Positions 2,308 to 58,148 of a stretch of 64,000 bases of DNA are shown here, piece by piece. The position numbers and the translations under genes are program-made. Numbering within the stretch: position 1 is the first letter of the stretch; each line of letters starts with the position of its first letter. The DNA is from an uncultured Candidatus Saccharibacteria bacterium (GTDB lineage Bacteria > Patescibacteriota > Minisyncoccia > Phycocordibacterales > Phycocordibacteraceae), in the NCBI GenBank assembly GCA_964402535.1, contig CAYOCH010000003.1:1825-65824 (forward strand). The letters are read 5' to 3'. The notes under the pieces were generated by a model, which was not told where the DNA came from, did no database searches, and was given only the letters and a program-made list of their open reading frames with translations.

Positions 2308-3882
2308 ATGACAGCCGCGCGACCGACAGCACCCTCGGTTCGTAGCGCACAGCAGAAATCATTGCCGAAGGCCGGCTACGCCAAGACGCTCGCCGCGCAG
2401 CCGGTCGGCTCTGCAGCCGAGCTTGTCTCGGTCGAAGCGGATTTGACGCGCGGCCTCCACAACTTTACCGTCGTCGGGCTCGCCGACAAGGCGGTCGAAG
2501 AGGCGCGCGATCGGATCTCGGCGGCGATTCGCCACTCGGGCTACAAGCCGCCCAAGCAGCAGAACAAACGCATCGTCCTCTCGCTCTCGCCGGCAGACTT
2601 GAAGAAGGAGGGCTCGCACTACGACCTCGCGCTGGCGCTCGCGTACCTCACGGCCGCGGGCGACGTGCCAGAGCTCGCTGACGAAGCGCTCCTCATCGGC
2701 GAGCTCGCGCTCGACGGCACGCTGCGCGCGGTGAAGGGCGTGCTGCCGCAGGTGCTCGCTGCGAAGCGTCGCGGGACGAAGACCGTCTTCGTGCCGCCGG
2801 ATAATGCGCGTGAGGCGCTTCTCGCCGACGGCATCGCGGTCTTCGCTCCCGAGTCGCTCGCTGACCTGCTCGCGCACGTGAGGGGCGAGAAGAGCCTCCC
2901 GCGCCTTGCGCGCAACCGGCAGACACAGCTCCCGCCGCCGGCGCTCGACCTTGCCGATGTGAAAGGGCAGGAGAGCGCGAAGCGTGCCCTCGAGATCGCC
3001 GCCGCCGGCCGGCACAACATCGTCTTCTACGGGCCGCCCGGCACCGGCAAGACGATGCTCGCTCGTGCGCTCTCCGGCATCTTGCCGCCACTCACCGACG
3101 ACGAGATGCTCGAGGTGACGGCGATCCACTCGACGGCCGGCATCTTGGGCGGGAGCGAGGCGGTGTATTGGCCGCCCTTCCGCGCGCCGCACCACTCGAT
3201 ATCACACGTGGCGATTGTAGGTGGCGGCGCATTCCCTAAGGCTGGCGAGGTGACTTTGGCGCACAAGGGCGTACTCTTTCTTGATGAATTCCCCGAGTTC
3301 GACTCACGCACACTCGAGGCGCTGCGGCAGCCCTTGGAGGATCGCGTCGTGACGGTCTCGCGAGCGCGAGCGACCATCACCTTCCCGGCCGATTGCATGA
3401 TCGTCGCGGCGATGAACCCGGCGAACACGCTCTCCGAGGACATGCGCGTCGCGATCCGCGAAGCGCAGAAACAGGCGCGACGCATCAGCCGCCCGATCGT
3501 CGACCGCCTCGATCTCTGGATCGAGGTGCCTTTGGTGCCGCACGATACGCTCTCTAAGCTCGGGAGCGGCGAGCCGTCGGCAGAGGTGCGTAAGCGCGTC
3601 GTCACGGCGCGCACTCGTGTCGAGAAGCGCACTGGCAGGCGCGGGGCGACCAACGGCGCCCTGACCGGCCGCGAGCTCGACGAGAAGAGCGGCTTCACTG
3701 TCGCCTCTAAGGAGGCGCTCACCACTGCCGCGTCTCGCTTGAACCTCTCGCCTCGCTCGTATCACCGCACGATGCGCGTCGCGCGCACGATCGCCGACCT
3801 CGCGGGCGCAGAGGCAGTCACGCCGGCGCACATCCACGAGGCGCTCCAGTACCGTCCCCGCGGCCTGTTCGGATTCGAGTGA
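2308..3882 (+). CDS. yifB: YifB/ComM family Mg-chelatase-like AAA+ ATPase
   Basis: 524 aa. N-terminal Lon-protease-like fold ([24 protein letters not shown]), Walker [14 protein letters not shown], Walker [10 protein letters not shown] and the C-terminal ChlI-like domain. Confidence 0.85.
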
Positions 3883-3922: not shown

Positions 3923-4393
3923 ATGGCGACGGTCGAACGGTTCGAGGACCTACTGATGTTCAAGAAGGCACGCGAATTGACGAAGGACGTATATCGCTCT
4001 CTCGCGTCGTGCAGAGATGCCGGTTTTCGCGACCAGATCCAGCGCGCATCCGTCTCGATCGTGTCGAACATCGCAGAAGGGTTCGAGAGCGGGACGAGAC
4101 AGGAATTCCTGAATTACCTGTATATCGCTAAAGCGTCAGCAGGTGAGGTGCGAGCGCAGATCTATGTCGGTCACGACATCGGCTATTTCAATATTGAAAT
4201 GTTTAAACATTTGAAGGCTCTCGCGGAGGAGTGCAGCCGCCTCGTCGCGAGCTTCGCAAAGAAGCTAAAAGCGGGAGGTAAGCTCGGCACGCAATTCAAG
4301 CACATGCCGCGTAAGGATGTCGCCCTCGAAATGCTCACCGCCGCCGGCTACGAACGTCTCCCGAACGGGCAGGTAGTCGAGAAAAAGCCTTGA
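3923..4393 (+). CDS. four-helix-bundle protein (23S rRNA intervening-sequence protein family)
   Basis: 156 aa. The FKKARELTKDVY...IVSNIAEGFESGTRQEFLNYLYIAKASAGEVRAQIYV pattern matches the TIGR02436 four-helix-bundle family. GC content is markedly lower than the flanks, which are AT-rich. Confidence 0.75.
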   Translation: MATVERFEDLLMFKKARELTKDVYRSLASCRDAGFRDQIQRASVSIVSNIAEGFESGTRQEFLNYLYIAKASAGEVRAQIYVGHDIGYFNIEMFKHLKALAEECSRLVASFAKKLKAGGKLGTQFKHMPRKDVALEMLTAAGYERLPNGQVVEKKP

Positions 4394-4481: not shown

Positions 4482-4889
4482 ATGGAAAACCTTGAAAAGC
4501 CGGTCAGTCCTACAAATGCTGATGAAGGTCGCTTGGGAGAAGAAGAAGCTCGTGAACTCGCAAATATGCAACGGGCCGCAATAAATGCCGATCCGGAGAT
4601 GACGGCTAATACATTCGAGGACGGATTATTTGAGGAAACCACGGCTGCAGATTACGATAGTGCGTTGCAGGCGATCGAAGAACTCAAAAAGCTTTCGGCA
4701 GAGGAACCGGCAACTGAAAAAGTACTATCTGCGTTAGCTCGCGCTTCAGAGGTAGGCCGCTTTCTCGTGATGAATGCTATCAGCACGGGCTGGTACGGGG
4801 CATACGATTTTGAGGAGAAGATGCAGAAACTCGAGGATGCGTCAGCGAAACTTCGTGCCCTCAAGGAAAAGGCGAAGCAATATTCATAA
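4482..4889 (+). CDS. hypothetical acidic protein
   Basis: 135 aa ORF in the same low-GC island; acidic, helical-looking, no known motif. Confidence 0.45.
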   Translation: MENLEKPVSPTNADEGRLGEEEARELANMQRAAINADPEMTANTFEDGLFEETTAADYDSALQAIEELKKLSAEEPATEKVLSALARASEVGRFLVMNAISTGWYGAYDFEEKMQKLEDASAKLRALKEKAKQYS

Positions 4890-4943: not shown

Positions 4944-5942
4944 TCACTGCGGGTTGCAGACCGCGCCGAGAGAGCAGTCACGGAGGGGGTTTGCGGCGCC
5001 GCGAACCTCGAAGTGGAGGTGTGGGCCGGTCGAAAGACCCGTTGCGCCGACGTAGCCGATCGTCTGTCCGGCGAGGACGGATTGACCCGGCGAGACGATC
5101 GAACGCGACATGTGCGAGTAGAGCGTCTGCGTGCCGTTGTCGTGCGTGATCACGACGTAGTTGCCGTAGCCGCCGTTCCAGCCGCCGTTGTTGCGCGAGA
5201 TGATGACTGTGCCGTCGGCTGCGGCGCGGATCGGCGTACCGCGTGCAGCCGCGAGGTCGACGCCGTTCCAGCCATGGAGACCTTGTGTGAGAATCGCGCC
5301 GGGTAACGGATCAATGTAGTAGTCATCCTGCGCTGCTCCGCTGCCGCCCAAGTACGGCTCCTTGCCGACGCGTCTCACGGGCGTCTTGGCCTTCGGCGCT
5401 ACCGGAGAGATCTCTGCCCCCGGGATGATGATCGTCGAACCGACCGCCAAGGGCGCGGCCGGATCGAGTCCGTTGAACTGCGCGATCTCTTCTGCGTCGG
5501 CGTTGTACTTCTTGGCAATCGACTTGAGCGTGTCTCCCGCGATGATGGTGCGCTTCACGCCAGAGATCGGGAGGATGATGAGCGTATCGCCGACGCGGAC
5601 GTCATTGATACCGGAAAGATTGTTCGCCCAAATGATGGTATTCACGGAAATGTTGAACATCTTCGCGATCACCGAGAGCGTGTCGCCCGGGCGGACCACA
5701 TAGACGGAGATGCGGTCGGACTGCGTCGTGCCGACGATATCGGCCGTCGTGCCGGCGGGGCCAGAGTTGGCTACAAGCGCGTTGTCGCTCGAGGTCTGGA
5801 CGGCGCCGATGCCCTTGTCCGGGTTCGGATCCATATTGATCGCCGCGGCAAGGACCGGAGTGGCCGAGGCTGGCACGGAGGCGGCCACCGCCGCGTCGGC
5901 GTTAGACGAAAAAGGCCAAAACGCGTGGGCGCGCTTCGGCAT
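4944..5942 (-). CDS. M23 family metallopeptidase with two LysM domains
   Basis: Two LysM repeats (YVVRPGDTLSVIAKMFNISVNTIIWANNL; DTLKSIAKKYNADAEEIAQFNGL) and a C-terminal M23 domain (HxxxD...HLHFEVR). An in-frame upstream stretch encodes a TM segment but has no ATG/GTG/TTG, so the true start is uncertain. Confidence 0.85.
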   Translation of the reverse strand: MPKRAHAFWPFSSNADAAVAASVPASATPVLAAAINMDPNPDKGIGAVQTSSDNALVANSGPAGTTADIVGTTQSDRISVYVVRPGDTLSVIAKMFNISVNTIIWANNLSGINDVRVGDTLIILPISGVKRTIIAGDTLKSIAKKYNADAEEIAQFNGLDPAAPLAVGSTIIIPGAEISPVAPKAKTPVRRVGKEPYLGGSGAAQDDYYIDPLPGAILTQGLHGWNGVDLAAARGTPIRAAADGTVIISRNNGGWNGGYGNYVVITHDNGTQTLYSHMSRSIVSPGQSVLAGQTIGYVGATGLSTGPHLHFEVRGAANPLRDCSLGAVCNPQ

Positions 5943-6300: not shown

Positions 6301-8235
6301 GTGAAATACCTCGACGGGTTGAATGATGCGCAAAAAAGGGCGGTTCTCGCCAAAGACGGACCGATTTCTGTCTTGGCGGGCGCCGGGAGCGGCAAAACGC
6401 GCGTCCTCACGACCCGGATCTACCACCTGATCCGCGAGGGGGTCGCGCCGCGGGAGATAGTAGCCGTCACCTTCACCAACAAGGCCGCCCGCGAGATGCG
6501 CGAGCGCGTCCGCGCTATGCTTTCTGCTCCGCACGAGGATACACAGAACGAGCGGCGAGATGGATTAATGCCGTTCATCGCCACCTTTCACGGGCTCGGG
6601 CGCGAACTCCTCGAGAGCTACGGGTCAGTGATGGACATCCCGCGCTACTTCAGCGTCTACGACCGCGACGACTCTGAGAAGGCGATCGCGACCGCTTTGA
6701 AAGCTCTCGATGTTGACGCAAAGGAGCTCTCCCCGCGCGCCGTGCTCGGCCGCATCTCGCGGGCGAAGGGCGAGGGGATGACCGCGCAGGAGTTCTCCGA
6801 ACGCTACGGCCGCTCGAGCTTCGGGGGGCGCATCGCGGCGGAGGCGTGGCTCCGCTACGACAAGGTCTTGAAGGCCGAGAAGGCGCTCGACTTCGACGAC
6901 TTGATCGCGCTGCCGCTCCGGATGCTTGAGGAACACGCGGAGGTGCGCGAGGCCGCGCAGAACCGCTGGCACTACATCCATATCGACGAATATCAAGACA
7001 CGAACGCGCTCCAGGGCCGTCTTGCGAACTTGCTCGCCGCGAAGCACAAGAACCTCTTCGTCGTCGGCGACATCGACCAGACGATTTATACCTGGCGCGG
7101 CGCGACGATCGAGAACCTGCTCGAGTTCGACAAGAACTATCCGGAGGCTCAGACGATCATTCTTGAGCAGAACTACCGTTCGACGAAGAATTTGGTCGAC
7201 GCTGCGAACGCGGTGATCGAGAAGAACAAGAACCGCAAGGAGAAGCGCTCGACGACCGAGCAGGGCCGCGGCGAACCGATCAGCATCCATATCGCGCTCT
7301 CGGCAGAGGACGAGGCGCGCTGGATCGCGCTTAAGATCCGCGAGTTGATGCGGCAAGGGACGAAGCCAGAGGATATCGCGATCCTCTTTCGCACCAACTT
7401 CCAGTCGCGAGCGCTCGAGGAGGGGCTCCTGCATGCCGGTGTTCCGTACAAGCTCCTCGGCACGCACTTCTTCGCGCGCAAGGAGGTGAAGGATGCGCTC
7501 GCGTGGGTGCGCCTCGCGATGGATCCGTCGCGTGAACAGGACAAGATCCGCGCGGCCGCAGCGCCCGCGCGCGGGATCGGCAAGGTCACGCTCGGCAAGC
7601 TTGCGGCGGGTGACCGTGCGGCGCTTCGTGCTGGAGAGCTCGCGAAGGTCGAGGCGTTCGAACGCATTGTCGCCGAACTTGCAGCAGCGACTGAGCAGCT
7701 CGCGCCATCGGAGTTCGTGAAGCTCGTGATCGAGAAGAGCGGCATGCGCCGCGTGCTCCTTGACGAGGGTTCGGCAGAGGACCGAGAGCGCTTTGAGAAC
7801 GTCGAGGAGCTCGCCTCGGTCGCCGCGCGCTACGATGCGACGCCGGGGAAGGGCGGCATCGCCGCTTTCCTCGCCGAGGCGGCGCTCGCGAGCGATCAGG
7901 ACGAGCTCGATCAAGGCGAGAAGACGGGTGTGACGCTCATGACGGTGCATGCCGCGAAAGGGCTCGAGTTCGGCACGGTGTTCGTCGCCGGCATGGAGGA
8001 AGGGCTCTTCCCCCACCAGGGGATGGGCAACGACGCCGACCGCGACGAAGAGGAGGAGCGGCGGCTCTTCTATGTCGCGATGACGCGCGCCAAAGCGCGG
8101 CTCTATCTCACGCTCGCGCGCGTGCGCAAGATCTACGGCACCGACTACGTCTCTGACCCGTCGTCGTTCATCGCCGATATCGACTCGTCGCTCTTGCTCT
8201 ATGATGAGACCGAAGGCTATGTCATCAACTATTAA
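6301..8235 (+). CDS. pcrA: ATP-dependent DNA helicase, UvrD/PcrA/Rep family
   Basis: Motifs AGAGSGKTRVLTTRI (Walker A), TFTNKAAREMRERV, DEYQDTN and VHAAKGLEF. The GTG at 6301 gives MKYLDGLNDAQKRAV, matching the PcrA N-terminus; the longest ORF starts at GTG 6259. Confidence 0.9.
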   Translation: MKYLDGLNDAQKRAVLAKDGPISVLAGAGSGKTRVLTTRIYHLIREGVAPREIVAVTFTNKAAREMRERVRAMLSAPHEDTQNERRDGLMPFIATFHGLGRELLESYGSVMDIPRYFSVYDRDDSEKAIATALKALDVDAKELSPRAVLGRISRAKGEGMTAQEFSERYGRSSFGGRIAAEAWLRYDKVLKAEKALDFDDLIALPLRMLEEHAEVREAAQNRWHYIHIDEYQDTNALQGRLANLLAAKHKNLFVVGDIDQTIYTWRGATIENLLEFDKNYPEAQTIILEQNYRSTKNLVDAANAVIEKNKNRKEKRSTTEQGRGEPISIHIALSAEDEARWIALKIRELMRQGTKPEDIAILFRTNFQSRALEEGLLHAGVPYKLLGTHFFARKEVKDALAWVRLAMDPSREQDKIRAAAAPARGIGKVTLGKLAAGDRAALRAGELAKVEAFERIVAELAAATEQLAPSEFVKLVIEKSGMRRVLLDEGSAEDRERFENVEELASVAARYDATPGKGGIAAFLAEAALASDQDELDQGEKTGVTLMTVHAAKGLEFGTVFVAGMEEGLFPHQGMGNDADRDEEEERRLFYVAMTRAKARLYLTLARVRKIYGTDYVSDPSSFIADIDSSLLLYDETEGYVINY

Positions 8236-9013
8236 AGCGAACCCTTCAACTCCGTTCAGGGCGAGAAAATCGTTGGGGCAGAATTTCCTGATGCATGCGC
8301 GGATCGCGGAGCGGATCGCGAAGGCCGCGGCGCTTCCGGCAGACGCGACCGTGTTCGAGATCGGTCCCGGCACGGGGATGCTCACCCGCGAGCTCCTGGA
8401 CGTCACGAAGAAGGTGATCGCCCTCGAGGCGGATGGCGAGCTCTATGCCCAACTGCGCGAGACGTTCGCCGACGAGATCGCGCACAAACGCCTCGAACTT
8501 ATTCACGGCGACATTCGCAGCTATCCACTAACTTTCACGGCCGTTAGGAATAGTGGATACCATGTTGTGGCGAACATCCCGTATTACCTCACCGGCGAAA
8601 TCTTTCGGATGCTTCTCGCTGCACGGCATCAGCCGCGCTCGATGACGCTCTTGGTGCAGAAAGAGGTTGCCGAGCGTGTCGCACGGTCGAAAAAAGAAAG
8701 CATTCTCTCGCTGTCAGTAAAAGCATTCGGCGTACCGACGTACGAATTCACCGTCCCGCGAGGCGCGTTCAGACCTGCGCCGAAGGTAGACTCGGCCGTC
8801 CTCTCTATACGCGACATTTCTCGCGCTGCCTTCACGAAGAAGGGGAGCGAGGAGCGCTTTTTCACGCTGCTGCATGCGGCGTTCGCGCACAAGCGCAAAT
8901 TCGTGCGCAATAACTTGGCCGAAGCAGGACTCGATGCCGGCGTTATCCCAGAAAAAGCGCGAGCAGAGGATGTCCCGCTCGCAGTGTGGCTCAAACTTTC
9001 AAGCGAGCATTAG
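8219..9013 (+). CDS. rsmA: 16S rRNA (adenine1518/1519-N6)-dimethyltransferase RsmA/KsgA
   Basis: SLGQNFL, EIGPGTGMLT and NIPY motifs. The ATG at 8219 overlaps the helicase stop; the longest ORF starts at 8201. Confidence 0.88.
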   Translation: MSSTIKANPSTPFRARKSLGQNFLMHARIAERIAKAAALPADATVFEIGPGTGMLTRELLDVTKKVIALEADGELYAQLRETFADEIAHKRLELIHGDIRSYPLTFTAVRNSGYHVVANIPYYLTGEIFRMLLAARHQPRSMTLLVQKEVAERVARSKKESILSLSVKAFGVPTYEFTVPRGAFRPAPKVDSAVLSIRDISRAAFTKKGSEERFFTLLHAAFAHKRKFVRNNLAEAGLDAGVIPEKARAEDVPLAVWLKLSSEH

Positions 9014-9396
9014 ATGCTCGTGCCGTAAAACCACGCCGAGGCGGGTACGGTAAAGCCTGTGTTCGGGCTCGTGAGGCAGAATGCCGGCGCCGAATAGCGC
9101 ATCCCTAGCACGCTCTGACCCGGATGCGACATAATATAGAAGAGGAATGGCGACGGATACACGGCAACGTCGATCGGGAACCCGAATGGCGCAAGTGCGA
9201 TGGTCGCAGTCACGAACCCGACGCCGAGACAGGGCCGGATCGCCACCACTTTTCCACCGAACGGCGCGACGAAGGTGTCGGCGCCGGTCGACCCTTCCGC
9301 CCAATCGCTCGCGTGAGCGACTGGATCGGTCGTGACCAAGAAAGAGGTACCGAGAAGGAGGATTGCAGTGAAGAAAACAATAAGAACAGTGCGCAT
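9010..9396 (-). CDS. small secreted/membrane protein (hypothetical)
   Basis: 128 aa with a convincing N-terminal signal peptide (MRTVLIVFFTAILLLGTSFLVTTDPVAHA); sits in a lower-GC patch and ends convergently with rsmA. Confidence 0.4.
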   Translation of the reverse strand: MRTVLIVFFTAILLLGTSFLVTTDPVAHASDWAEGSTGADTFVAPFGGKVVAIRPCLGVGFVTATIALAPFGFPIDVAVYPSPFLFYIMSHPGQSVLGMRYSAPAFCLTSPNTGFTVPASAWFYGTSI

Positions 9397-9436
9397 AGGG
9401 TCATAGTAGCACGCAGCTGCTATACTTTATAGCGAT

Positions 9437-10471
9437 ATGGGGGAACCGATCCAAGCCAATTGGCGCGTCCTGGCCGCATCACTCGTTGCCGCCGTTCTCG
9501 TGATCGGTGCCTACGTCCTTGCGCGGGGCGTCGAGTCGTCGGATGTCGCACAAGCCTCGACCGAGACGGCGCTCCTGCAGGCGATCGCGGCGAAAGATTC
9601 TGACAACGACGGCCTCCCCGACTGGGAGGAGGCGCTCTACGGCACCGATCCGTACGCGGTCGACACCTTCAACCTCGGGATGACCGACGGCGCCGCTGTC
9701 GCCAAAGGGCTCATCGTCCCGAAGGCGATCGCCACCATCTCCTCGGCGACCTCGACGGCGCCTCTTTCAAGCGACGTGGACTACAAGAAGCTCGGCATCG
9801 CGGCGCCGAATGAGGGCTCACTGACCGACGCATTCGCCAAGAGCTTCTTCACCTACTACGCCGAGACCAAAAAGACCAAGGGCGGCGACCTCTCGCAGGC
9901 GGACATCGACGCGATCGAGCAGCAGGCGCTCGACTCGCTCTCCTCCACAATAGCCAAGGCGCCGGATTACAAATCGGCGAGCGATCTTGCTGTCTCGGGC
10001 TCCGGGCCGGACGCGCTCCGCGCCTTTGCCGTGCAGGCCGAGGCGATCTTCAAGAAGAACACGAGCATGGCGACGACGAGCGAGCTCGTGTATCTGCAAT
10101 ATGCGGCAGAGAGCAACGATGCAAAGGCGGTTGCAGCGCTCGAGTCGATCGCGCAGGCGTATCGTGCAGCGGCTGCCGGGCTCGCCGTGCTGCCGGTGCC
10201 GCGCGAGCTCGCGTCAGCGGACCTCGCGCTCATCAATGCGATGGCGCGCGTGAGCGGGATCGTCGAGAACTTCGCCCAAGTGAACAGCGACCCCTTGGTC
10301 GCGATGATGGCGCTCGAACAGTACACGGCGGCGGCGCAAGACCTGGGTGCAGCGTTTGCGAATATCGCAAATGATTATGCGGTTGCCGGTGTTACGCTCG
10401 ACAAGGGGGCGCCCGGCGCCTCGTTCGTGGGCGTGAGCGCGGCTGCCGCGCGTATCCAGCCTGCACCATGA
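9437..10471 (+). CDS. membrane-anchored protein with a DSDNDGLPDWEE (TSP3/dockerin-like Ca-binding) motif
   Basis: 344 aa: N-terminal TM helix, then the D-x-D-x-D-G motif and an Ala-rich extracellular region. Its stop overlaps the next gene (ATGA). Confidence 0.6.
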   Translation: MGEPIQANWRVLAASLVAAVLVIGAYVLARGVESSDVAQASTETALLQAIAAKDSDNDGLPDWEEALYGTDPYAVDTFNLGMTDGAAVAKGLIVPKAIATISSATSTAPLSSDVDYKKLGIAAPNEGSLTDAFAKSFFTYYAETKKTKGGDLSQADIDAIEQQALDSLSSTIAKAPDYKSASDLAVSGSGPDALRAFAVQAEAIFKKNTSMATTSELVYLQYAAESNDAKAVAALESIAQAYRAAAAGLAVLPVPRELASADLALINAMARVSGIVENFAQVNSDPLVAMMALEQYTAAAQDLGAAFANIANDYAVAGVTLDKGAPGASFVGVSAAAARIQPAP

Positions 10472-12132
10472 ACACGCGCTTCGCATCAAGGGTGATCGTC
10501 GCACTGCTCGCCGTCGGCATCATCGCTCCGGCGTTCCTCGTGCCGCAGCGCGCGTCGGCACAGGTGGCGAGCGCAGCAGGGGCGGCATCGTGCTTTGCCG
10601 CCGGCGGTGTCGGTCTCGCAGGCGGCGCGGCCTCTGCAGTGCTCTCGGTGCCTGTGAATGACATGGCGAACCTGGCGCAGAACACGTTCACCGCCGGCGC
10701 GACGCAAGGCGACTGCATCAAGAACAACATCATCACGCCGCTCGCACGGCTCATGGCGCGCATCGTGATCCAGCAGATCACGGCGAGCACAATCAACTGG
10801 ATCACCGGGCGTAACGGCACCGGCCAGCCGACGTTCGTGACGAATCTCTCCCTCAATCTGCAGGCCGTCGGCGACGCGGTCGCGCTCTCGTATATCTCTC
10901 GCGTGACGACTGCCTTCAACTCGCCCTTCGGCCCGATGATCGCGCAGTCGCTCCAGCTCCAGTACAACCAGCAGTCGAGCCTCGCAGGCTTCTTCGCAGC
11001 GAATCAGTCCACGCTCAACCGGTGGTCGCCGAATCCGAATGCCTTCCTTTCCGGACAGTGGGCGCAGGGCGGGATCCCTGCGTGGTTCGCGCTCACGACG
11101 CAGACGCAGAACAACCCGTACACGCTGTATCAGGCAGCAGAAGGGCAGCTCAGATCGAACCTCTCTCAAGCAGAGACGAACCGCCGCCAGGACATCGCGC
11201 AAGGGGGCGGCTTCCTCTCGTGGTGCGGCGTGACGGACGCGGCAGCGCAGGATCAGAGCTCCGCAGCCGGCGGAGGCGCCAATCCGGGTGATGCCTGCAC
11301 CAACAGCGACGGAACGCCGGGGACCGTTCAGACACCGGGTTCGGCGATCCACGACTATGCGCAGAAAGCGATCGTCGGCGCCGGGCTCGACCAGCTCGTC
11401 TCGGTGACCGACATAGATCAGGCGCTCGGCGCGATCGCGATGGCGCTCGTCAACCAGGTACTCGGGAATGGCGGTCTCTTGGGCGCCGGCACGCCGCTGC
11501 CGGGGCGGCCGCCGATAACAAACCAGCTCCAGGCCTACTCGGGTGATACGTCCGCGAACACGGGATCCTCGTCGTCGTTCGCCGGCGCGATGCTCTCGCG
11601 CATCACTGCCTACAAGGCCGCGTGGGGGACTATCACCTCCTCGGCGGACGTCGCCTCCTCGAGCCTCAACAGGCTCGTGACCTACTGCAACTCGCAGGCG
11701 ACGGATCCGAACGCGCTGCAGGGGGTGATCAACGCGAATGTCGCAGCGGCGCAGGCGGCGCTCGCGACCGAGGTCGCGCCGATCTACACTCAAGCCGGGC
11801 AGGCGATCGCCGCGACCGACCCGACGAAGGCGCTCGCGCTCAAGGTGCAGGCAGAGTCCTCGAGCGTGACCTCGACAACGACAGCCGCGACGATCGCGGC
11901 GGACACGGGCGTCTTGGCGACCGCCGCCCCGACCGTGAGCGACCTCACATCCGTGCAGCAGAACGCCTCGGTGATGAACGGCGCCAAGGCGAACCCAGCG
12001 GGCTCGCTCACGGTCGCGGGCGGCTCGCTCGTCGATCAGATGAACCTGATCACGACGAACGCGGCGGCGCTCCAGGCCGCCTGCACGCCGAATGCAGCGA
12101 ACGGACCAAGTGTCATCACTCCGACAGGATAA
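10468..12132 (+). CDS. large secreted Ala/Thr/Gln/Asn-rich protein (hypothetical surface protein)
   Basis: 554 aa with a signal peptide (MNTRFASRVIVALLAVGIIAPAFLVPQRASAQVAS) and low-complexity hydrophilic composition; translationally coupled to its neighbours. Confidence 0.6.
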   Translation: MNTRFASRVIVALLAVGIIAPAFLVPQRASAQVASAAGAASCFAAGGVGLAGGAASAVLSVPVNDMANLAQNTFTAGATQGDCIKNNIITPLARLMARIVIQQITASTINWITGRNGTGQPTFVTNLSLNLQAVGDAVALSYISRVTTAFNSPFGPMIAQSLQLQYNQQSSLAGFFAANQSTLNRWSPNPNAFLSGQWAQGGIPAWFALTTQTQNNPYTLYQAAEGQLRSNLSQAETNRRQDIAQGGGFLSWCGVTDAAAQDQSSAAGGGANPGDACTNSDGTPGTVQTPGSAIHDYAQKAIVGAGLDQLVSVTDIDQALGAIAMALVNQVLGNGGLLGAGTPLPGRPPITNQLQAYSGDTSANTGSSSSFAGAMLSRITAYKAAWGTITSSADVASSSLNRLVTYCNSQATDPNALQGVINANVAAAQAALATEVAPIYTQAGQAIAATDPTKALALKVQAESSSVTSTTTAATIAADTGVLATAAPTVSDLTSVQQNASVMNGAKANPAGSLTVAGGSLVDQMNLITTNAAALQAACTPNAANGPSVITPTG

Positions 12133-12133
12133 T

Positions 12134-14479
12134 ATGCGACGCTTCCTTTCAACACTCATCGTGATGGTCGCGCTCATGGGCGCGGCCGGCGCAGCGCCGG
12201 CCGCGTATGCACAGGCCACGGCAGACCCGGGGCTGGACGGCTATGCGACTGACGAGTCAGGCAACGCGTATACGCAAGCGCAAATCGATGCGACCAATGC
12301 GGCCGGCCAAGCCGGCGTCGCGCAGACAGTGCAGCAGATGACGAATCCGAGCGATGCAAAGAAGTCGATCGATCCGAATGCTAGCAAAGACGCCGGCTCC
12401 CAGTACGGCTCTGTGATGACGTGGATCATGACGCTCTTCGCCTGGCTCGTCGGCGTCGCGGCGCTCCTCCTCGACAACGCGGTCTACTTCACCGTCGTGA
12501 AGATGGGCGATTACATCCGCAACCTATCGGCCGTCGGCGTCACGTGGCGGATCCTCCGGGATATCGGGAACATATTCCTCATCTTCGGCTTCATCTTCGG
12601 CGGCATCGCGACGATCCTGAACATGGATATCTACGGCTGGGGCAAGAAGATGCTCCCGATGCTCATCGTCGGTGCCGTGTTCATCAACTTCTCGCTCTTC
12701 TTCGCCGAGGCGGTGATCGACGTCGGCAACCTCTTTGCGACGCAATTCTATACGCAGATCAATGGGGGGCGTGCTTCGAGCCCGCAATCATTCGGTTCCG
12801 GTTTCGGCGTCCGGCTGCAGAATGAAGGGATATCAAACGTGCTGATGGCAAAACTCGGGCTGCAGACCATCTACGGCGATGCAGCGAAGAATACCAAGCT
12901 GTTCAAGGCGGATAACACCTGGGTGATCGGCTTCATGGGCATCCTCCTGTTCATCGTCACGGCTTTCGTCCTCTTCTCGCTCTCGTTCGTGCTTATCGCG
13001 CGCTTCGTGATGCTCCTCTTCATCATAATATTTTCGCCGATCGGGATCGTAGGCCTCGCGGTGCCCAAGCTCGGCAAGCTCGCGAAACAGTGGTGGGATA
13101 CGCTCTTCGAACAGACTGTCACGGCGCCGCTCCTGCTCTTGTGCCTCTATATCGCACTCGCCGTCATCTCTGACGCGTCCTTTCTCTCGAGCGACACGAG
13201 CGCGGTGGGTTGGGTGAACGGCGACTTCCAGGGCTTCGCGAGCTTTATCCTCTCGTTCCTCATCGCGATGGGGCTCTTGCTTGCCGTGGTACTCATCGCT
13301 AAGAAGCTCTCTGCCGCCGGCGCCGACTGGGCATCGCGAACTGCTGGCACGCTCACGTTCAGCGCTACCGCGCTAGGGCTCCGTTATACGGCGGGGAAGG
13401 GTTCGGATGCGCTTGCGCGCAAAGTGCGTGAGAGCAAGACGCTTAACAGCACGGCGCTCGGACGATTCGCTAGTCGGAAAGTTGCAGGCGCGTTCGACTA
13501 TGGCGCGACCGCGAACTATCATATCGGGGCAGCGGCGAACAAGATCCCGGCTCTCTCTGGCATCGACTACGGCAAGACCCACGAGGGTGGGTATCGTGCG
13601 GAGAAGAAGATCACGGAGGAGTACAAGAAGTCTGCCGAGGACGCGCAGAAGGAGGCTGCGAAGAAGGAACGTGCAGCAGAGGTCAAGAGAGCGATGGAGA
13701 GCGCTGATGCGGAGCTGGACGCAGGCACGATTACTCACGACGAGTATGATGCACGAATCTCCCCGCATCTCGCCAAGATGTCAGCAAAAGAGATAGAGGA
13801 TCTCGACGGGATCAAGAAGGGTACTGAAGAACTCGTCAGGAACCTGTCACCACAGCAGTTCGAGGCACTAATGAAGAGCGATAATTTGAGCCAGTCGCAG
13901 AAAGACGGTATCAAAGAGGCTCGCTTTAGGGACGTTACTGCAAAGATTGCGGCGGCGACCGCGCCTGGCGCGGCACCAGCTGTGATCGCGGATGCACAAG
14001 CGGCCGTTGTGAAGTTGAGTAACAAGGAGCTCGCGCATTTGGACTCAAATACCCTCACGAAAGATTTCGTAGCAGATAACCTGACGAATGATCAGTACGA
14101 ATATATCGGTAAGGAAGGCATACTGAGCGGTGCGCAAAAGACGGCGCTCGATGCACGTCGTAAAAACCGGTTCGATCCCGCAATCACGCCGCACAGTGAC
14201 GTGGCGAACGCGATAAGGTCTCTTAAGTGGAATCGAGATCAGATAAGAAAACTTCCGTCCGCGACTGTTACCAATACCGACGTCTTAAATGACCTGGGTT
14301 CGGAAGCGCTTAACCTTATCGATATTGTTCGGACCGGGAACCTTTCCCCGACAGATCGCCGTCGCCTCGGTACGTACTTCGAAGACATAGCAACTCACCC
14401 GACTGACCCGCGACAGGCAGATTTTGCGGCCTACCTTGCGGCCGATCCACGCATAAAGAGAGATCTTCTCATCACGTAA
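12134..14479 (+). CDS. polytopic membrane protein with long charged C-terminal domain (possibly VirB6/TrbL-like; unverified)
   Basis: Signal peptide MRRFLSTLIVMVALMGAAGAAPAAYA, about 6-7 TM helices over residues ~110-420, then a ~370-aa Lys/Glu/Ala-rich coiled-coil-like tail. The ATG is 1 nt after the upstream stop. Confidence 0.6.
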   Translation: MRRFLSTLIVMVALMGAAGAAPAAYAQATADPGLDGYATDESGNAYTQAQIDATNAAGQAGVAQTVQQMTNPSDAKKSIDPNASKDAGSQYGSVMTWIMTLFAWLVGVAALLLDNAVYFTVVKMGDYIRNLSAVGVTWRILRDIGNIFLIFGFIFGGIATILNMDIYGWGKKMLPMLIVGAVFINFSLFFAEAVIDVGNLFATQFYTQINGGRASSPQSFGSGFGVRLQNEGISNVLMAKLGLQTIYGDAAKNTKLFKADNTWVIGFMGILLFIVTAFVLFSLSFVLIARFVMLLFIIIFSPIGIVGLAVPKLGKLAKQWWDTLFEQTVTAPLLLLCLYIALAVISDASFLSSDTSAVGWVNGDFQGFASFILSFLIAMGLLLAVVLIAKKLSAAGADWASRTAGTLTFSATALGLRYTAGKGSDALARKVRESKTLNSTALGRFASRKVAGAFDYGATANYHIGAAANKIPALSGIDYGKTHEGGYRAEKKITEEYKKSAEDAQKEAAKKERAAEVKRAMESADAELDAGTITHDEYDARISPHLAKMSAKEIEDLDGIKKGTEELVRNLSPQQFEALMKSDNLSQSQKDGIKEARFRDVTAKIAAATAPGAAPAVIADAQAAVVKLSNKELAHLDSNTLTKDFVADNLTNDQYEYIGKEGILSGAQKTALDARRKNRFDPAITPHSDVANAIRSLKWNRDQIRKLPSATVTNTDVLNDLGSEALNLIDIVRTGNLSPTDRRRLGTYFEDIATHPTDPRQADFAAYLAADPRIKRDLLIT

Positions 14480-14490
14480 CAGAGATTAAT

Positions 14491-15420
14491 ATGAAAAGTT
14501 ATTCGGATGACGAAATAATTCAGCTGCTCGATCGCATCCCGCCGATTGTTCGGGAGCGCATCACTCGTCCTGAAACAGCACGAATCATTGCATCGATAGG
14601 AAAGAGCAAACAGCTGCATATCGATAAGATCGGCAAGATAGCCGAACTGAATCGAAATGCGCTTCTCGGGCTTATCGGACCGGCTGAATTCGTTCAAGAG
14701 CTCATCGCTTCTGGAATTTCTGACGCAGATGCAAAGAATATTGTCCAACAGATTAACGAACAGATCTTTAAGCCGTTGCGGGACGAGGAGCTGAAGCGAG
14801 GTATTGATGCAGAACCGAAACCGGTAACGCCAGCTCCTGCACCGGCTCCAGCTCCCGCATCGGCGGCGCCACAGGCACCTGTAGCGCAGACGCCAGCGGG
14901 GCAGACAGGCTCATTCTTCCGCCTGCAGAACAAGATTCAGCCGGCGCCCGGTCCGCGAGCGTACACGCCGCCGCCGCAGTCACCGATGTATCGGCGTCCC
15001 GATCAAGAAGATAGCCCGCTGATCATCAAGGTGTCACCGCCCCCGGTCGTGCAGCAGAAGCGGATAGTGCCCGTCTCGAGCGTGCCTGTAGTACCTGTGG
15101 CGGACAAGACAGAAGTGCCGCCGAACCTGCCTGGCGCAATGCCGCCGCGTCCTGTCGCGCCTGCCGCCCCTGCGGTGCCAGTAACACCGGCGTCGTCGGC
15201 TGTGCTTCCGTCAGCGCGGATTGTTGCTCCCGCTGTACCCGCTATGCCCGTCGCTCCGGTCGCACCGCGGCCGGGCACGCCCGCGGCCCCCGTGGCGCCT
15301 CGCCCGATGCAACCGGTGATGCCCGCTGCACCCGCAGCGCCCAAGCCGCCAGCTCCCGCGCCAGCTGCACCTGCGAAGCCCTACGGCGTCGACCCGTACC
15401 GCGAACCGATCGAGCCGTAG
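14491..15420 (+). CDS. hypothetical protein with Pro/Ala-rich C-terminal half
   Basis: 309 aa: structured N-terminal ~110 aa followed by PAPAPAPA.../PVAP repeats. Confidence 0.5.
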   Translation: MKSYSDDEIIQLLDRIPPIVRERITRPETARIIASIGKSKQLHIDKIGKIAELNRNALLGLIGPAEFVQELIASGISDADAKNIVQQINEQIFKPLRDEELKRGIDAEPKPVTPAPAPAPAPASAAPQAPVAQTPAGQTGSFFRLQNKIQPAPGPRAYTPPPQSPMYRRPDQEDSPLIIKVSPPPVVQQKRIVPVSSVPVVPVADKTEVPPNLPGAMPPRPVAPAAPAVPVTPASSAVLPSARIVAPAVPAMPVAPVAPRPGTPAAPVAPRPMQPVMPAAPAAPKPPAPAPAAPAKPYGVDPYREPIEP

Positions 15421-15485: not shown

Positions 15486-15893
15486 ATGGCCACCATCAAT
15501 CAGCTCTCACGCAAGGGACGCAAGAACAAGACCTCGAAGACGAGCGTACCGGCGCTCGCTCGCGGCTTTAACGCTCTCAAGAACCGCCCGACTTTCTATG
15601 CGTCGCCCTTCAAGCGCGGCGTCTGCACCAAGGTGACCACCAAGACCCCGCGCAAGCCGAACTCGGCTATCCGCAAGATCGCTCGTGTCCGCCTCACGAA
15701 CGGCATGGAGGTCACGGCTTACATCCCGGGCGAGGGCCACAACCTCCAGGAACACTCGGTGGTGATGCTCCGCGGCGGCCGCGTGAAGGACATCGGCGTG
15801 CAGTACACGATCGTCCGCGGCAAGCTCGACACGGCCGGCCTCGAGAAGCGCCGCCGCTCCCGCTCGCGCTACGGCGCGAAGCGCCCTAAGTAA
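15486..15893 (+). CDS. rpsL: 30S ribosomal protein S12
   Basis: [12 protein letters not shown]...PKKPNSA[I]RK...[15 protein letters not shown], the canonical S12 sequence. Confidence 0.97.
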
Positions 15894-26464: not shown

Positions 26465-26806
26465 ATGGCACGCTCACTCAAGAAGGGACCATTCGTGGAC
26501 GCAAAGCTCCTCAAGAAGGTCGCTCTCAAGAAACCGGCATCCGCCGGGGTCATCAAGACGTGGGCGCGCCGGAGTCAGATCAGCCCGGAAATGGTCGGAT
26601 TCACCTTCGGCGTCCACAACGGCAAGAGCCATGTGGAGGTCCTCGTCTCTGAGGAGATGGTGGGACACCGCCTCGGCGAATTCTCGCCGACCAAGAAGTT
26701 CATGCGCCACGGCGGCAAGATGCAGAAGGAGCTCGAGGCCAAGAAGCAGCAGGCCGAAATCACCGCAGCCAAGGCCGCCAAGGAGGCGCCGGCCGCTAAG
26801 AAATAA
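26465..26806 (+). CDS. rpsS: 30S ribosomal protein S19 (Lys/Ala-rich C-terminal extension)
   Basis: [12 protein letters not shown]...[10 protein letters not shown] core plus a [21 protein letters not shown] tail. Confidence 0.95.
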
Positions 26807-26808
26807 CC

Positions 26809-27129
26809 ATGGCCACAGCATCCCTCAAGAGCTATAACCAGACCCCGCGCAAAGTCCGCCTCGTGACGGACCTCGTGAAGGGCAAGACGGTCACCGAGGC
26901 GCTCACGGCGCTCACGTTCCTCCCGCGCCGCGCAGCCGAGCCGATCGCCAAGCTCATCCGGAGCGCAGCCGCAAACGCCAAGGAGCAGGGCGCCGACGTC
27001 GCGACGCTCCGCGTGAAGTCGATCACCGTCGACAGCGCCGGCATGCTGAAGAAGTACATGCCGCGCGCCTTCGGCCGTGCCTCGATGATCCGCCGCCGCA
27101 AGAGCCAGGTCAACGTGACGCTCGCCTAA
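26809..27129 (+). CDS. rplV: 50S ribosomal protein L22
   Basis: 106 aa with the L22 fold signature; follows rpsS in operon order. Confidence 0.92.
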   Translation: MATASLKSYNQTPRKVRLVTDLVKGKTVTEALTALTFLPRRAAEPIAKLIRSAAANAKEQGADVATLRVKSITVDSAGMLKKYMPRAFGRASMIRRRKSQVNVTLA

Positions 27130-27135
27130 CTTTAT

Positions 27136-27843
27136 ATGACACACATCGTCCATCCGTACGCGCACCGTCTCGGCATCATCCGGGATTGGAAGAGTCGCTG
27201 GTTCGCCGGCGATAAGAAGAGCTACCGCGAGAACATCAAGGTGGACGAGACGATCCGCACCTTCCTCACCAAGCGCCTGCGCGGCACCTACACCTCGAAC
27301 ATCGAGATCGAGCGCGCCGAGGGCGAGCTCCGTGTCGTCGTCTCGACTGCGCGCCCGGGCCTCGTGATCGGCCGCTCCGGCGAGAACGCAACCAAGCTGC
27401 GCGCCGAGCTCACCGAGGTCGTCCGCAAGGCATCCGCCGCCGCGCTCCCCTCCGGGAAGCAGGTCAAGCTCGACATCAACGAGATCCGCCAGCCGGAGAC
27501 CGATGCAGCCGTCGTCGCCTACATGGTCGCCGAGGGCCTTGAGAAGCGCATGCCGTTCCGCCGCGTCCTCAAGCAGACGGTAGAGAAGGTGATCGCTGCC
27601 CGCGAGGTCGAGGGCGTGCGCATCGCGATTTCCGGGCGCTTGGGCGGCGCCGAGATGAGCCGCAAGGAGGAGCTCAAGAAGGGGCGCATCCCGCTCCAGA
27701 CCTTCCGTGCGGACATCGACTTCGCCCGCGAACAGGCCTACCTCCCGTACGGCGTGATCGGCATCAAGGTGTGGATCTATCGCGGCAACATCTATCAGGA
27801 CAAGACGGCGCCGGTGCGCCTTAACGAGCCCGTCCGCGGCTAA
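27136..27843 (+). CDS. rpsC: 30S ribosomal protein S3
   Basis: 235 aa with a KH domain and conserved GRLGGAEM. Confidence 0.96.
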   Translation: MTHIVHPYAHRLGIIRDWKSRWFAGDKKSYRENIKVDETIRTFLTKRLRGTYTSNIEIERAEGELRVVVSTARPGLVIGRSGENATKLRAELTEVVRKASAAALPSGKQVKLDINEIRQPETDAAVVAYMVAEGLEKRMPFRRVLKQTVEKVIAAREVEGVRIAISGRLGGAEMSRKEELKKGRIPLQTFRADIDFAREQAYLPYGVIGIKVWIYRGNIYQDKTAPVRLNEPVRG

Positions 27844-27852
27844 CCGACTACC

Positions 27853-28272
27853 ATGCTTTTCCCGAAGAAGGTCAAACATCGTAAGTGGCAGACGCAGCGG
27901 ATGAGCCCCAAGGCGCTCAGCCGTCCTGAGACGCGCGGCACGACGGTCGCGTTCGGCTCGTTCGCGCTCAAGGCGCTCACGCCGGCGCGCGTGACGAGCA
28001 ACCAGATCGAGTCCGCCCGCAAGGTGCTCACGCGTGCGACCGCCAAGACCGGCAAGCTCTGGATCCGCATCTTCCCTGACCGCCCGGTCACGGCGAAGCC
28101 GGCAGAAGTGGGCATGGGCTCCGGCAAGGGCGACCCGAAGCACTACGTCTTCCAGGTGCGGCCGGGCCGCATCCTCTTCGAGATGGACGGCGTCGACGAG
28201 AAGATCGCTCGTGCGCACCTGCGCCAGGCGGGCATGAAGCTCCCGGTCAAGACGTCGATCGTGACGCGCTAA
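27853..28272 (+). CDS. rplP: 50S ribosomal protein L16
   Basis: MLFPKKVKHRK...FGSFALKA..., canonical L16. Confidence 0.96.
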   Translation: MLFPKKVKHRKWQTQRMSPKALSRPETRGTTVAFGSFALKALTPARVTSNQIESARKVLTRATAKTGKLWIRIFPDRPVTAKPAEVGMGSGKGDPKHYVFQVRPGRILFEMDGVDEKIARAHLRQAGMKLPVKTSIVTR

Positions 28273-28291
28273 TTGCTTTTTCGTACCGGAT

Positions 28292-28495
28292 ATGACAAAA
28301 GTAGAAAACATGACGACGAAGAACGATCAGGAGCTCGCAAAGCTCCTCGCTGACACGCGCGCCGAGCTCCGCTCGGAGCGTTTCTCTGCCGCCGGCGCTC
28401 GCGCCAAGGACACGAACGCGAAGGGGAAGCACCGCGCGACGATCGCCCGCGTCCTCACCGAGCAGCGCCGCCGCGCACTCGCCGCCGCAAACTAA
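28292..28495 (+). CDS. rpmC: 50S ribosomal protein L29
   Basis: 67 aa in operon position; the ELAKLLADTRAELRSERF helix is typical of L29. The start could be the ATG at 28310. Confidence 0.85.
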   Translation: MTKVENMTTKNDQELAKLLADTRAELRSERFSAAGARAKDTNAKGKHRATIARVLTEQRRRALAAAN

Positions 28496-50522: not shown

Positions 50523-50584
50523 AGATGTTGGTATTAATCGGGCTTAAGAAAGTAATGTTGAAACCCGTACGAAAATGTCGAACG

Positions 50585-54599: not shown

Positions 54600-54649
54600 C
54601 ATCCATATGTTCGCGCTATAGCGTGAAGATTTGGATAGTGTGCGCAAAC

Positions 54650-54686
54650 AAAAAAGCCCCGCGCGAGCGGGGCTTTTTGTTTGATT
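54650..54686 (+). terminator. intrinsic terminator after groEL
   Basis: AAAAAAGCCCCGC-gcga-GCGGGGCTTTTTGTTTG. Confidence 0.85.
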
Positions 54687-54727
54687 GTGTAATGCGCAAG
54701 ACATGTCGCAGTGCTACACTCAATCCA

Positions 54728-56200: not shown

Positions 56201-56203
56201 ACA

Positions 56204-57463: not shown

Positions 57464-57470
57464 CATCCAT

Positions 57471-58144
<674 letters not shown>

Positions 58145-58148
<4 letters not shown>

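Follow-up and report, generated by a model that had tools for sequence, protein, structure and literature searches.

A conserved four-gene unit between rsmA and rpsL likely encodes the VirB5/VirB6-type half of a patescibacterial type IV secretion system

The type IV secretion systems (T4SSs) of Patescibacteria are chromosomal, possess a VirB4 nested in the Gram-positive MPF_FATA class (MPF, mating-pair formation), are mostly devoid of a relaxase, often lie near dnaA or ksgA, and include VirB2-like pilins (Quinonero-Coronel et al. 2025, PMC12102498). In this survey, KsgA is frequent within 20 coding sequences of virB4. VirB6 homologues were recorded in 480 cases, 304 of them near virB4, and VirB5 in one genome with a Gram-negative-type system. 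Southlakia epibionticum requires its T4SS (SEML1_0006-0019) for epibiotic growth (Wang et al. 2023, PMC10633639), and no T4SS other than the patescibacterial one has been reported as essential for the growth of its bearer. A 2025 review attributes VirB1, VirB3, VirB4, VirB6, VirB8, VirD4, and pilins to these systems, and VirB5 is not listed. In plasmid R388, the stalk is formed by two pentamers, VirB6 embedded in the membrane and VirB5 on top of it (Mace et al. 2022, PMC9259494). Here, we analyzed a 64,000-nucleotide stretch of contig CAYOCH010000003.1 (assembly GCA_964402535.1, an uncultured Candidatus Saccharibacteria bacterium), referred to as the window, which carries between rsmA and rpsL a group of genes that we named g1 to g5. 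We consider it likely that g2 to g5 form the membrane and surface half, of VirB5/VirB6 type, of a Patescibacteria T4SS, separated from its ATPase genes.

Five open reading frames (ORFs) lie between rsmA and rpsL (table 1). The original prediction had correctly placed a surface or membrane cluster at this position, but counted six genes. Scanning one genome per species, we identified 80 species loci encoding a relative of g4, and the cluster is present in all of them. Wherever a locus extends far enough, uvrD and rsmA come first, sometimes followed by one extra gene, and then g2, g3, g4, and g5; longer contigs show the g2-g5 neighbourhood in matching order. Neighbors were counted over 85 loci. 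The g3-g4 order is kept in 82 of these, g2 is found 5' of g3 in 76 and is missing only at contig ends, and g5 is located 3' of g4 in 63; the genes for S12 and S7 follow g5 in 71 and 69 loci, respectively. Ahead of g2, rsmA is found in each locus reaching that far. The reading frames of the unit are intact wherever a contig of the 80 species-level genomes covers them. As the order is kept in every locus extending far enough and g1 is not conserved, the conserved unit is g2-g5, a vertically inherited chromosomal operon rather than a mobile island. The junctions are tight, with an ATGA overlap between g2 and g3, TAAtATG between g3 and g4, and an 11-nt spacer between g4 and g5; the first two are those from which translational coupling had been predicted.

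The central member of this unit is g4, whose product is identical to database protein P0001. A signal-peptide-like N-terminus is followed by a disordered ectodomain of about 60 aa and by about seven hydrophobic or transmembrane (TM) helices at residues 92-397 (nt 12407-13324). TrbL and VirB6 proteins are polytopic, with at least five hydrophobic helices, and g4 shares this architecture according both to hydropathy and to the helices of an AlphaFold2 model (predicted local distance difference test, pLDDT, 85-93). This model, built from 120 homologues, has a mean pLDDT of 84.3. The 350-380-aa tail (residues 398-781, nt 13325-14476), of which 30% of the residues are charged, is modeled as a long helix and a compact helical domain (residues 520-781) with a pLDDT mostly above 90. 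It is probably cytoplasmic, because the predicted topology combines a cleaved signal peptide with seven TM helices. The signal peptide, the helices, and the charged tail had all been anticipated; the tail is, however, not simply the coiled coil that had been proposed.

Two orthologues that are 45-48% identical to g4, P0024 and P0066, match Pfam TrbL (PF04610) with 25.7 and 24.8 bits (E = 1.2e-5 and 2.2e-5) over positions 24-214 of the 215 of the profile, the gathering score of 25.9 bits being reached by no member of the family. Orthologue P0005 matches TrbL_4 at E = 1e-4, and 4 of 40 g4 members give matches at E < 0.01. When the g4 model was compared by Foldseek with 350,542 PDB chains, ranks 1 and 2 were occupied by the R388 stalk chains 8rt9_F and 8rtd_L (probability 0.96-0.97). 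We attribute these chains to TrwI/VirB6 (342 aa), as they comprise 268-272 residues and TrwJ/VirB5 has only 226 aa. The TM core of g4 has 31 invariant positions and is 49-65% identical across 72 of 73 orthologous loci, L084 (36%) being the exception. Searched against PDB sequences, the full-length g4 profile gave only coiled-coil noise and the TM-only profile A4 returned nothing, and a tblastn search with the TM domain found no match in plasmids. No similarity of the tail to solved structures was detected by profile search of PDB sequences or by Foldseek. The orthologue scores and the model, whose best, though non-significant, PDB matches are VirB6 chains, suggest that g4 belongs to the TrbL/VirB6 superfamily. 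The likeness to VirB6/TrbL that the original prediction put forward tentatively is in this way upheld.

Directly 5' of g4 and translationally coupled to it, g3 occupies the place expected of a virB5 gene, adjoining that of a VirB6/TrbL protein. Its product is rich in A, T, G, and S and comprises a probable signal peptide (residues 1-31), a Gly/Ala/Cys-rich insert of about 30 aa, a degenerate TrbJ motif, and long helices. It belongs to a family of 4,474 representative clusters (E <= 1e-3), without annotation and mostly 500-650 aa in size. The N-terminal signature is clear in P0227, P0230, and P0240, in which the signal peptide precedes an I(P)V(F)D..N..Q motif and helix 1. P0227 matches the NCBIfam TrbJ models NF010448 (E = 7e-5, residues 13-74, 22 bits against a cut-off of 225) and NF010452 (E = 1.2e-3). 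P0240 matches Pfam DUF4141 (E = 5.2e-7, residues 18-66, 29.4 bits against a cut-off of 30), which we take to be the N-terminal domain of Bacteroides TraI, encoded just upstream of the VirB6-like TraJ. A tblastn search of 7.3 Gb of plasmid DNA with the N-terminus of mature P0227, from which the signal peptide had been removed, gave 20 matches (best E 2e-3, 53% identity over 44 residues). Sixteen of these fall on an annotated gene, which is trbJ in 14 cases. The segment ALFGIGDIVFDPTNWIQETITAV of P0227 aligns with ALFGVGDIVLDPTNLVQNTLTAV of Pandoraea TrbJ, and the mature parts of the two proteins align with a score of 100, against 24.5±4.5 for shuffled sequences.

A TrbJ hidden Markov model (HMM) built from seven plasmids was run against a target that included 249 g3-family members, g4 proteins, VirB4 proteins, and the window ORFs. 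At E < 0.01, it detected 13 of the 249 members (best 5.7e-11), the match being N-terminal in the top four, and no g4, VirB4, or window ORF. On iteration, the HMM grew to 224 of the 249 members. We did not count this result for the window g3, since in its subfamily the match is carried by the signal peptide and the window protein itself is not reached. As the profiles miss the window g3, its link to TrbJ runs via full-length homology to motif-bearing members, with which it shares 34-38% identity over most of its length (E 1e-62 to 1e-77). In the window protein, the signal peptide and the insert are followed by VPVNDMANLAQNTFTA. The degenerate motif VNDMANLAQNTFTAGAT (residues 63-79, nt 10654-10704) has 9 of 17 residues in common with TrbJ, and its local score of 41 (shuffles 25.7±4.7) was reached by 10 of 2000 shuffles. 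The trbJ-upstream-of-trbL order is also that of R388 and of five of the seven trb plasmids examined; in the remaining two, trbL is not annotated in one case and no gene is annotated between trbJ and trbL in the other. Judged from these similarities, g3 belongs to a family in which some members carry the TrbJ/VirB5 N-terminal signature, and g3-g4 corresponds to the canonical trbJ-trbL or virB5-virB6 order.

The remainder of g3 differs from known VirB5 proteins, which have about 220-260 aa and a three-helix-bundle body. The AlphaFold model has a pLDDT of 72.7, with 162 residues at 90 or above, as long helices. The secreted, low-complexity protein of the original prediction is accordingly secreted by the look of its N-terminus, but not merely of low complexity. 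A fold search of the PDB gave no significant match, the best non-significant ones being elongated helical-bundle surface proteins; VirB5, TraC, and CagL are absent among the 50 fold matches listed, except for the R388 stalk chain 8rt9_F at rank 49. The comparison with pilin or S-layer folds that had been suggested for this protein found no support, and we rejected both candidates; where the family does show a relationship, at the N-terminus, it is of TrbJ/VirB5 type.

The unit was described in the original prediction as lacking an ATPase partner in the window, and this holds. No VirB4- or VirD4-like ATPase was found in these 64 kb of a 68-kb contig by a Walker-A scan and Pfam searches of ten large ORFs. 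The Walker-A ORFs are only those of ComM, UvrD, EF-G, EF-Tu, and an ABC ATPase, and a Kaiserbacteria VirB4 gave no tblastn match in the window. Homologues of the window proteins are named Kaiserbacteria, Paceibacterota, or Parcubacteria, which places the window in that group of Patescibacteria, and among such relatives the partner is found. In the four most divergent loci (L022, L038, L075, and L084), rpsL does not follow g5. Instead, g5 is directly followed by genes for a PrgI/VirB3-like protein and a TrsD-like protein, so that it lies between g4 and the PrgI/VirB3-like gene. The gene encoding VirB4 comes next in L022, L038, and L075; the L084 contig ends inside the TrsD-like gene. In both L038 and L022, the complete order is g2, g3, g4, g5, PrgI-like, TrsD-like, VirB4, membrane protein, secreted protein, and pilin-like, and the L022 block continues to yidC and dnaA. 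In these contiguous loci, the PrgI/VirB3-like protein has 137-143 aa, the next one is TrsD/TraC-like, VirB4 has 606 aa, and the pilin-like protein is of VirB2 type. The identity of VirB4 is confirmed by PDB 4ag5 (E = 3e-44), TrwK (7e-6), and Pfam P-loop_TraG, DUF87, and AAA_10.

In relatives with the gene order of the window, the two halves lie 48-68 kb apart on one replicon. On the complete chromosome OY969413, g4 is located at about 706 kb, and the PrgI, TraC-like, VirB4, and T4SS_pilin genes, which adjoin yidC-rnpA-dnaA-dnaN, are found at about 774 kb. On a 159-kb contig, some 48 kb separate the two halves. Such a separation would account for the absence of an ATPase from the window. Homologues of VirB4, for which a search elsewhere in the genome had been proposed, were thus recovered in relatives, and the contiguity of the VirB4 set in L022, L038, and L075 (PrgI and TrsD in L084) removes the missing-ATPase objection to the analogy with a T4SS. 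Through contiguity or a shared replicon, g4 is encoded in these relatives with VirB4 and other mating-pair-formation genes, as expected of a TrbL/VirB6 protein. The VirB4 half of OY969413 and of the 159-kb contig contains no TrbL match and no g2-g5 paralogue, and g4 is therefore the only recognizable VirB6 candidate. Five of the six genomes in common with the published survey were scored VirB4-positive there.

Between L038 and L022, identity reaches 93% for VirB4, 77% for TrsD, and 70% for PrgI, compared with 59% for g2, 56% for g3, 44% for g4, and 42% for g5. This faster divergence of the envelope genes than of the ATPase fits surface exposure and host-specific selection. Four more genes are conserved 3' of that of VirB4 (L038:15825-17368; L022:15962-19813; L090:11814-15809). 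Of their products, one is a small, polytopic membrane protein, one is secreted (about 325 aa), one is pilin-like, and one has about 400 aa; T4SS_pilin is the only Pfam match, and all four are likely additional uncharacterized parts of the T4SS.

The two outer genes of the unit encode proteins of different topology. g2 has a single N-terminal hydrophobic helix (anchor at about residues 9-34 by hydropathy) and an Ala-rich ectodomain. Its KDSDNDGLPDWEE motif corresponds to Pfam TSP3_bac (E = 1.5e-5), a calcium-binding-type repeat at residues 54-72 (nt 9596-9652), in agreement with the anchored protein and the motif read from the sequence at first. TSP3_bac was found in 42 of 60 g2 orthologues, with no further recurrent family, and an hhalign comparison with R388 TrwG/VirB8 was not significant (E 0.37, with a single-sequence template that is weak). 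g5, correctly foreseen as Pro/Ala-rich (21% Pro, 15% Ala), has no hydrophobic segment. Its N-terminal domain, of about 100 aa, is conserved, and a Pro/Ala-rich linker leads from there to a C-terminal DPYxE core: D301, P302, Y303, and E305 are invariant in alignment A6, and the motif reads DPYREP in the window and DPYREPID in the consensus. No recurrent Pfam family was found among 57 g5 orthologues, and in Pfam and NCBIfam scans of the window g2 and g5 the TSP3 repeat of g2 was the single match.

Table 1. Genes of the rsmA-rpsL interval of the window and its two boundary genes
Feature	Position	Strand	Description
rsmA/ksgA	8201-9013	+	Upstream boundary marker; Pfam RrnaAD on the identical gene in L001
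g1	9010-9396	-	128 aa; small protein with signal-peptide-like N-terminus; divergent from g2; peripheral to the conserved four-gene unit
g2	9437-10471	+	344-aa bitopic membrane protein, predicted; first gene of the conserved unit
g3	10468-12132	+	554-aa protein, predicted to be Sec-type secreted; family with TrbJ/VirB5-like N-terminus
g4	12134-14479	+	781-aa putative extended VirB6/TrbL-like polytopic membrane protein
g5	14491-15420	+	309 aa, without signal peptide or TM segment; last gene of the unit
rpsL (S12)	15486-15893	+	Start of the str operon; downstream boundary in the window's lineage; Ribosom_S12_S23 match

The locus resembles in several respects the T4SSs already described in Patescibacteria. 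It is found in the same phylum and, in relatives, is chromosomal and associated with the same kind of VirB4, with matching PrgI/VirB3-like, TrsD-like, and VirB2-like pilin genes, near dnaA and ksgA. As in those systems, a relaxase is lacking: none was seen in the annotated neighborhoods of the relatives' loci. Three features set it apart. VirB6 is accompanied here by a widespread TrbJ/VirB5-like family. In most genomes of Kaiserbacteria type, the locus is split, with the VirB5/VirB6 half at rsmA-rpsL and the VirB3/VirB4/pilin half at oriC. Finally, g2 and g5 are not described in PMC10633639 or PMC12102498. While the T4SS of Patescibacteria is already known, the literature that we searched, in which only the survey and the 2025 review name both VirB5 and Patescibacteria, appears to contain no description of the VirB5-like subunit, of the split locus, or of g2 and g5.

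With the TrbJ-TrbK-TrbL or VirB5-VirB6 stalk module of P-type systems (MPF_T; R388 TrwJ/TrwI, PDB 7O3V and 8RT9), the locus shares a secreted TrbJ/VirB5-like gene directly 5' of a polytopic TrbL/VirB6-like gene and an N-terminal motif, IV(F/L/Y)DPTN..QN.LTA, common to g3-family members, and TrwI is the best PDB chain match of the g4 model, although below significance. In contrast to these systems, the host is monoderm, no entry-exclusion gene separates g3 from g4, and VirB7, VirB9, VirB10, and VirB11 were not seen in the loci examined. g3 has 554 aa instead of 226-260 and is unrelated past the N-terminus, g4 has 781 aa, a cleavable-looking signal peptide, and a 380-aa tail, and the g3 and g4 families do not reach the curated HMM cut-offs. 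g4 can also be compared with extended VirB6 proteins (PMC12857230), having like them a hydrophobic core of at least five helices and a large hydrophilic C-proximal domain; its tail has no detectable similarity to solved structures. The PrgI (PF12666), TraC-like/TrsD, and VirB4 set and the monoderm envelope are those of Gram-positive MPF_FATA systems (pCF10 PrgH, PrgI, PrgJ; pGO1 TrsD). However, the literature describes MPF_FATA as without VirB5 and VirB2 homologues, whereas a TrbJ-like protein and a T4SS_pilin gene are present here. F-plasmid TraG and Rickettsia RvhB6 are examples of extended VirB6 proteins.

Several observations weigh against assigning g2-g5 to a T4SS. The VirB4 of the window's own genome was not located, the stretch covered being 64 kb of a 68-kb contig. 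The window g4 matches Pfam TrbL weakly (10.1 bits, E = 0.7), although co-linearly over positions 22-214 of 215, and a narrow TrbL HMM, made from six closely related plasmid TrbLs, matched no g4 member. The VirB6 matches obtained by Foldseek have E values of 0.17-0.19, which are not significant, and TM-scores on the target of 0.38-0.40. By hhalign, the g4 profile was not significantly similar to TrwI (E 0.3) or Pandoraea TrbL (0.49), nor the g3 profile to TrwJ (0.17) or TrbJ (0.58), with single-sequence templates that are weak and make these comparisons uninformative. For g3, the TrbJ resemblance covers about 50 N-terminal residues, and the remaining 450 or more have no detectable relative. The window copy has no family match in Pfam or NCBIfam and is never reached by the iterated TrbJ profile, and its motif has a p value of about 0.005 in a targeted shuffle test only. 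Lastly, the roles proposed below for g2, g5, and the g4 tail derive from position and topology.

These gaps leave room for a reading in which type IV secretion plays no part, a TrbL-fold protein and its secreted partners having been co-opted into a stand-alone envelope complex for surface-layer anchoring, wall remodeling, or uptake. Such a role would explain the housekeeping position beside the ribosomal str operon. In about 70 of the 80 species, the unit lies apart from any ATPase, between rsmA and rpsL, and the window contains no T4SS genes. T4SS homology is absent from g2, g5, the g4 tail, and most of g3, and between L038 and L022 divergence is far more rapid for the cluster genes (42-59% identity) than for VirB4 (93%). 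However, four lineages keep the unit co-directional in one block with PrgI, TrsD, and VirB4, and a TrbJ-like and TrbL-like pair in canonical order is hard to explain outside a T4SS. In the VirB4 half, moreover, no VirB6 candidate was recognized by Pfam or by homology to g4, so that this half appears to need one, and the splitting of a T4SS locus has precedents, such as that of Rickettsia (cited in PMC12102498). We consider a stand-alone complex unlikely.

A narrower reading concerns g3, which could be an independent surface adhesin or coat protein that acquired its TrbJ-like N-terminus by shuffling, as a secretion or anchoring module, and is not a T4SS subunit. The resemblance to TrbJ, limited to about 50 mature residues and clear in only 13 of 249 members, would be compatible with such an origin, as would a size more than twice that of VirB5, the nature of the best (non-significant) fold matches, and the insert that disrupts the motif region of the window copy. 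Yet g3 invariably adjoins g4 and is coupled with it, and we find a shuffled adhesin very unlikely.

GC content is about 62% over the window, 0.65 in g2, and 0.67 in g3, and decreases to 0.575 in g4 and 0.62 in g5, with 0.53 at positions 14001-15000. The drop in the second half of the cluster noted in the original prediction is thus real, and falls where the Lys/Glu-rich g4 tail ends and g5 begins. That the unit is decaying mobile DNA left by an integrated conjugative element is a highly improbable reading, which we rejected given the fixed synteny: TrbJ, TrbL, and VirB6 are classically conjugation genes, the GC content dips in g4 and g5, and a XerC-type recombinase is encoded about 9 kb 5' of the cluster, just beyond the window start (contig L086), but position, order, and orientation are fixed in 80 species-level genomes with intact frames where covered, translational coupling is preserved, no relaxase, coupling protein, or repeat boundary is present, the GC content of g2, g3, and g5 is the genome average, the dip coincides with the Lys/Glu-rich tail and the g5 start, and relaxases occur in only 103 of 3,035 Patescibacteria genomes (PMC12102498).

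Assuming that g2-g5 is the VirB5/VirB6-type half of the T4SS, a mechanism can be proposed. By analogy with the R388 stalk, g4 oligomers in the cytoplasmic membrane would provide the base and the platform for assembly, and g3, exported by Sec, would dock on the outer face of g4. g3 could then be pushed outward at the tip of a filament of VirB2-like pilin, provided by the other half of the system, and contact the host cell, assembly or transport being powered by the VirB4 ATPase anchored by the PrgI/VirB3-like protein. g2, with its N-in, C-out topology and predicted Ca2+-binding TSP3 repeat, might serve as a wall-spanning scaffold. The presumably cytoplasmic, Pro-rich g5, with its DPYxE core, and the helical g4 tail might connect the channel with partners in the cytoplasm. 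We propose tentatively that g3 acts as a true VirB5-like protein, at the pilus tip or in host contact. With similar reserve, we suggest that the g3 family could be the true VirB5 of Patescibacteria. In these monoderm epibionts with reduced genomes, a complete pilus-biogenesis core of Gram-negative style, with a VirB2-like pilin, a VirB5-like tip, and a VirB6-like base, would be mounted on a Gram-positive-type VirB3/TrsD/VirB4 motor, the g3 body being a tip adhesin or a membrane-inserting element, and the operon standing separately near str in genomes of Kaiserbacteria type. If so, the large and fast-evolving g3 body would select and breach the host cell. The function of the machine is probably host-cell interaction and not conjugation, and we infer the link to episymbiosis from work on Saccharibacteria.

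The small protein g1 does have the signal-peptide-like N-terminus of the secreted protein first predicted there, but its gene is on the minus strand and outside the conserved operon. Pfam and NCBIfam scans yielded no family for g1, and a clear orthologue was found in only one other species locus (L029; tblastn, 47% identity). By phmmer, a weak match (E 0.007; domain E 0.0015) links the C-terminal part of g1 to a domain encoded by minus-strand genes located in the same gap in about 20 species. These rsmA-g2 gap genes, such as L012:6264-7385, L013:6066-7118, and L031:5565-5942, encode secreted proteins of a short form of about 126 aa and a long form of 330-380 aa; the latter combines a peptidoglycan-binding-like segment with a Cys-containing C-terminal domain starting with GVPFGG. 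From this similarity, the window g1 looks like a short, divergent member of the gap proteins.

The ORFs called by a public gene caller on contigs of the same organism (Logan contig L001) are identical to ours. An in-frame ATG upstream of g4 (12092-12133) would add 14 codons overlapping g3; the start at 12134 is favored, because the database protein and the TAAtATG junction agree on it. Scans of the window for tRNAs and Rfam families gave no match. Upstream of the window, contig L086 carries XerC, S15, and NYN genes, and no T4SS gene was seen there. Within the window, a trio of genes conserved in the order found in L003-L005 is located on the plus strand at 799-1935, 1954-2301, and 2308-3882. 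It encodes a 378-aa Pro-rich single-TM protein without Pfam match, a DksA/TraR-type zinc finger protein, and a ComM/YifB Mg-chelatase-like ATPase. Between comM and an M23 hydrolase gene, a 23S_rRNA_IVP-family gene (3923-4393, +) and a 135-aa ORF (4482-4889), not found in L003-L005, constitute a small lineage-specific insertion. The hydrolase gene (4944-5942, -), with LysM and Peptidase_M23 domains, is syntenic in L003-L005, two genes 5' of rsmA. M23 and LysM domains have been noted in some VirB1-like T4SS hydrolases (PMC12102498), and this enzyme could be the one that opens the wall for the T4SS.

Further downstream, two ORFs without Pfam match, of 578 aa (26575-28311, -) and 582 aa (50525-52273, +), are putative, as each overlaps a long opposite-strand ORF in high-GC DNA. 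HlyD-like, FtsX-like, and ABC-ATPase genes in a row (54623-58148, +) resemble a MacAB-type exporter and are followed by a gene for a copper-type P-type ATPase (58643-60913).

Published inventories describe the patescibacterial T4SS as Gram-positive-like, with added VirB2-like pilins and without VirB5. A widespread TrbJ/VirB5-like partner would supply the missing tip or stalk element. With it, the pilus hypothesis would gain weight, and host recognition would have a concrete candidate. As the split locus shows, surveys restricted to 20 genes on each side of virB4 overlook one half of the system in a large clade. Four widespread families of hypothetical proteins gain a functional context, and the question of what the Patescibacteria T4SS transports, and whether a pilus is built, becomes testable.

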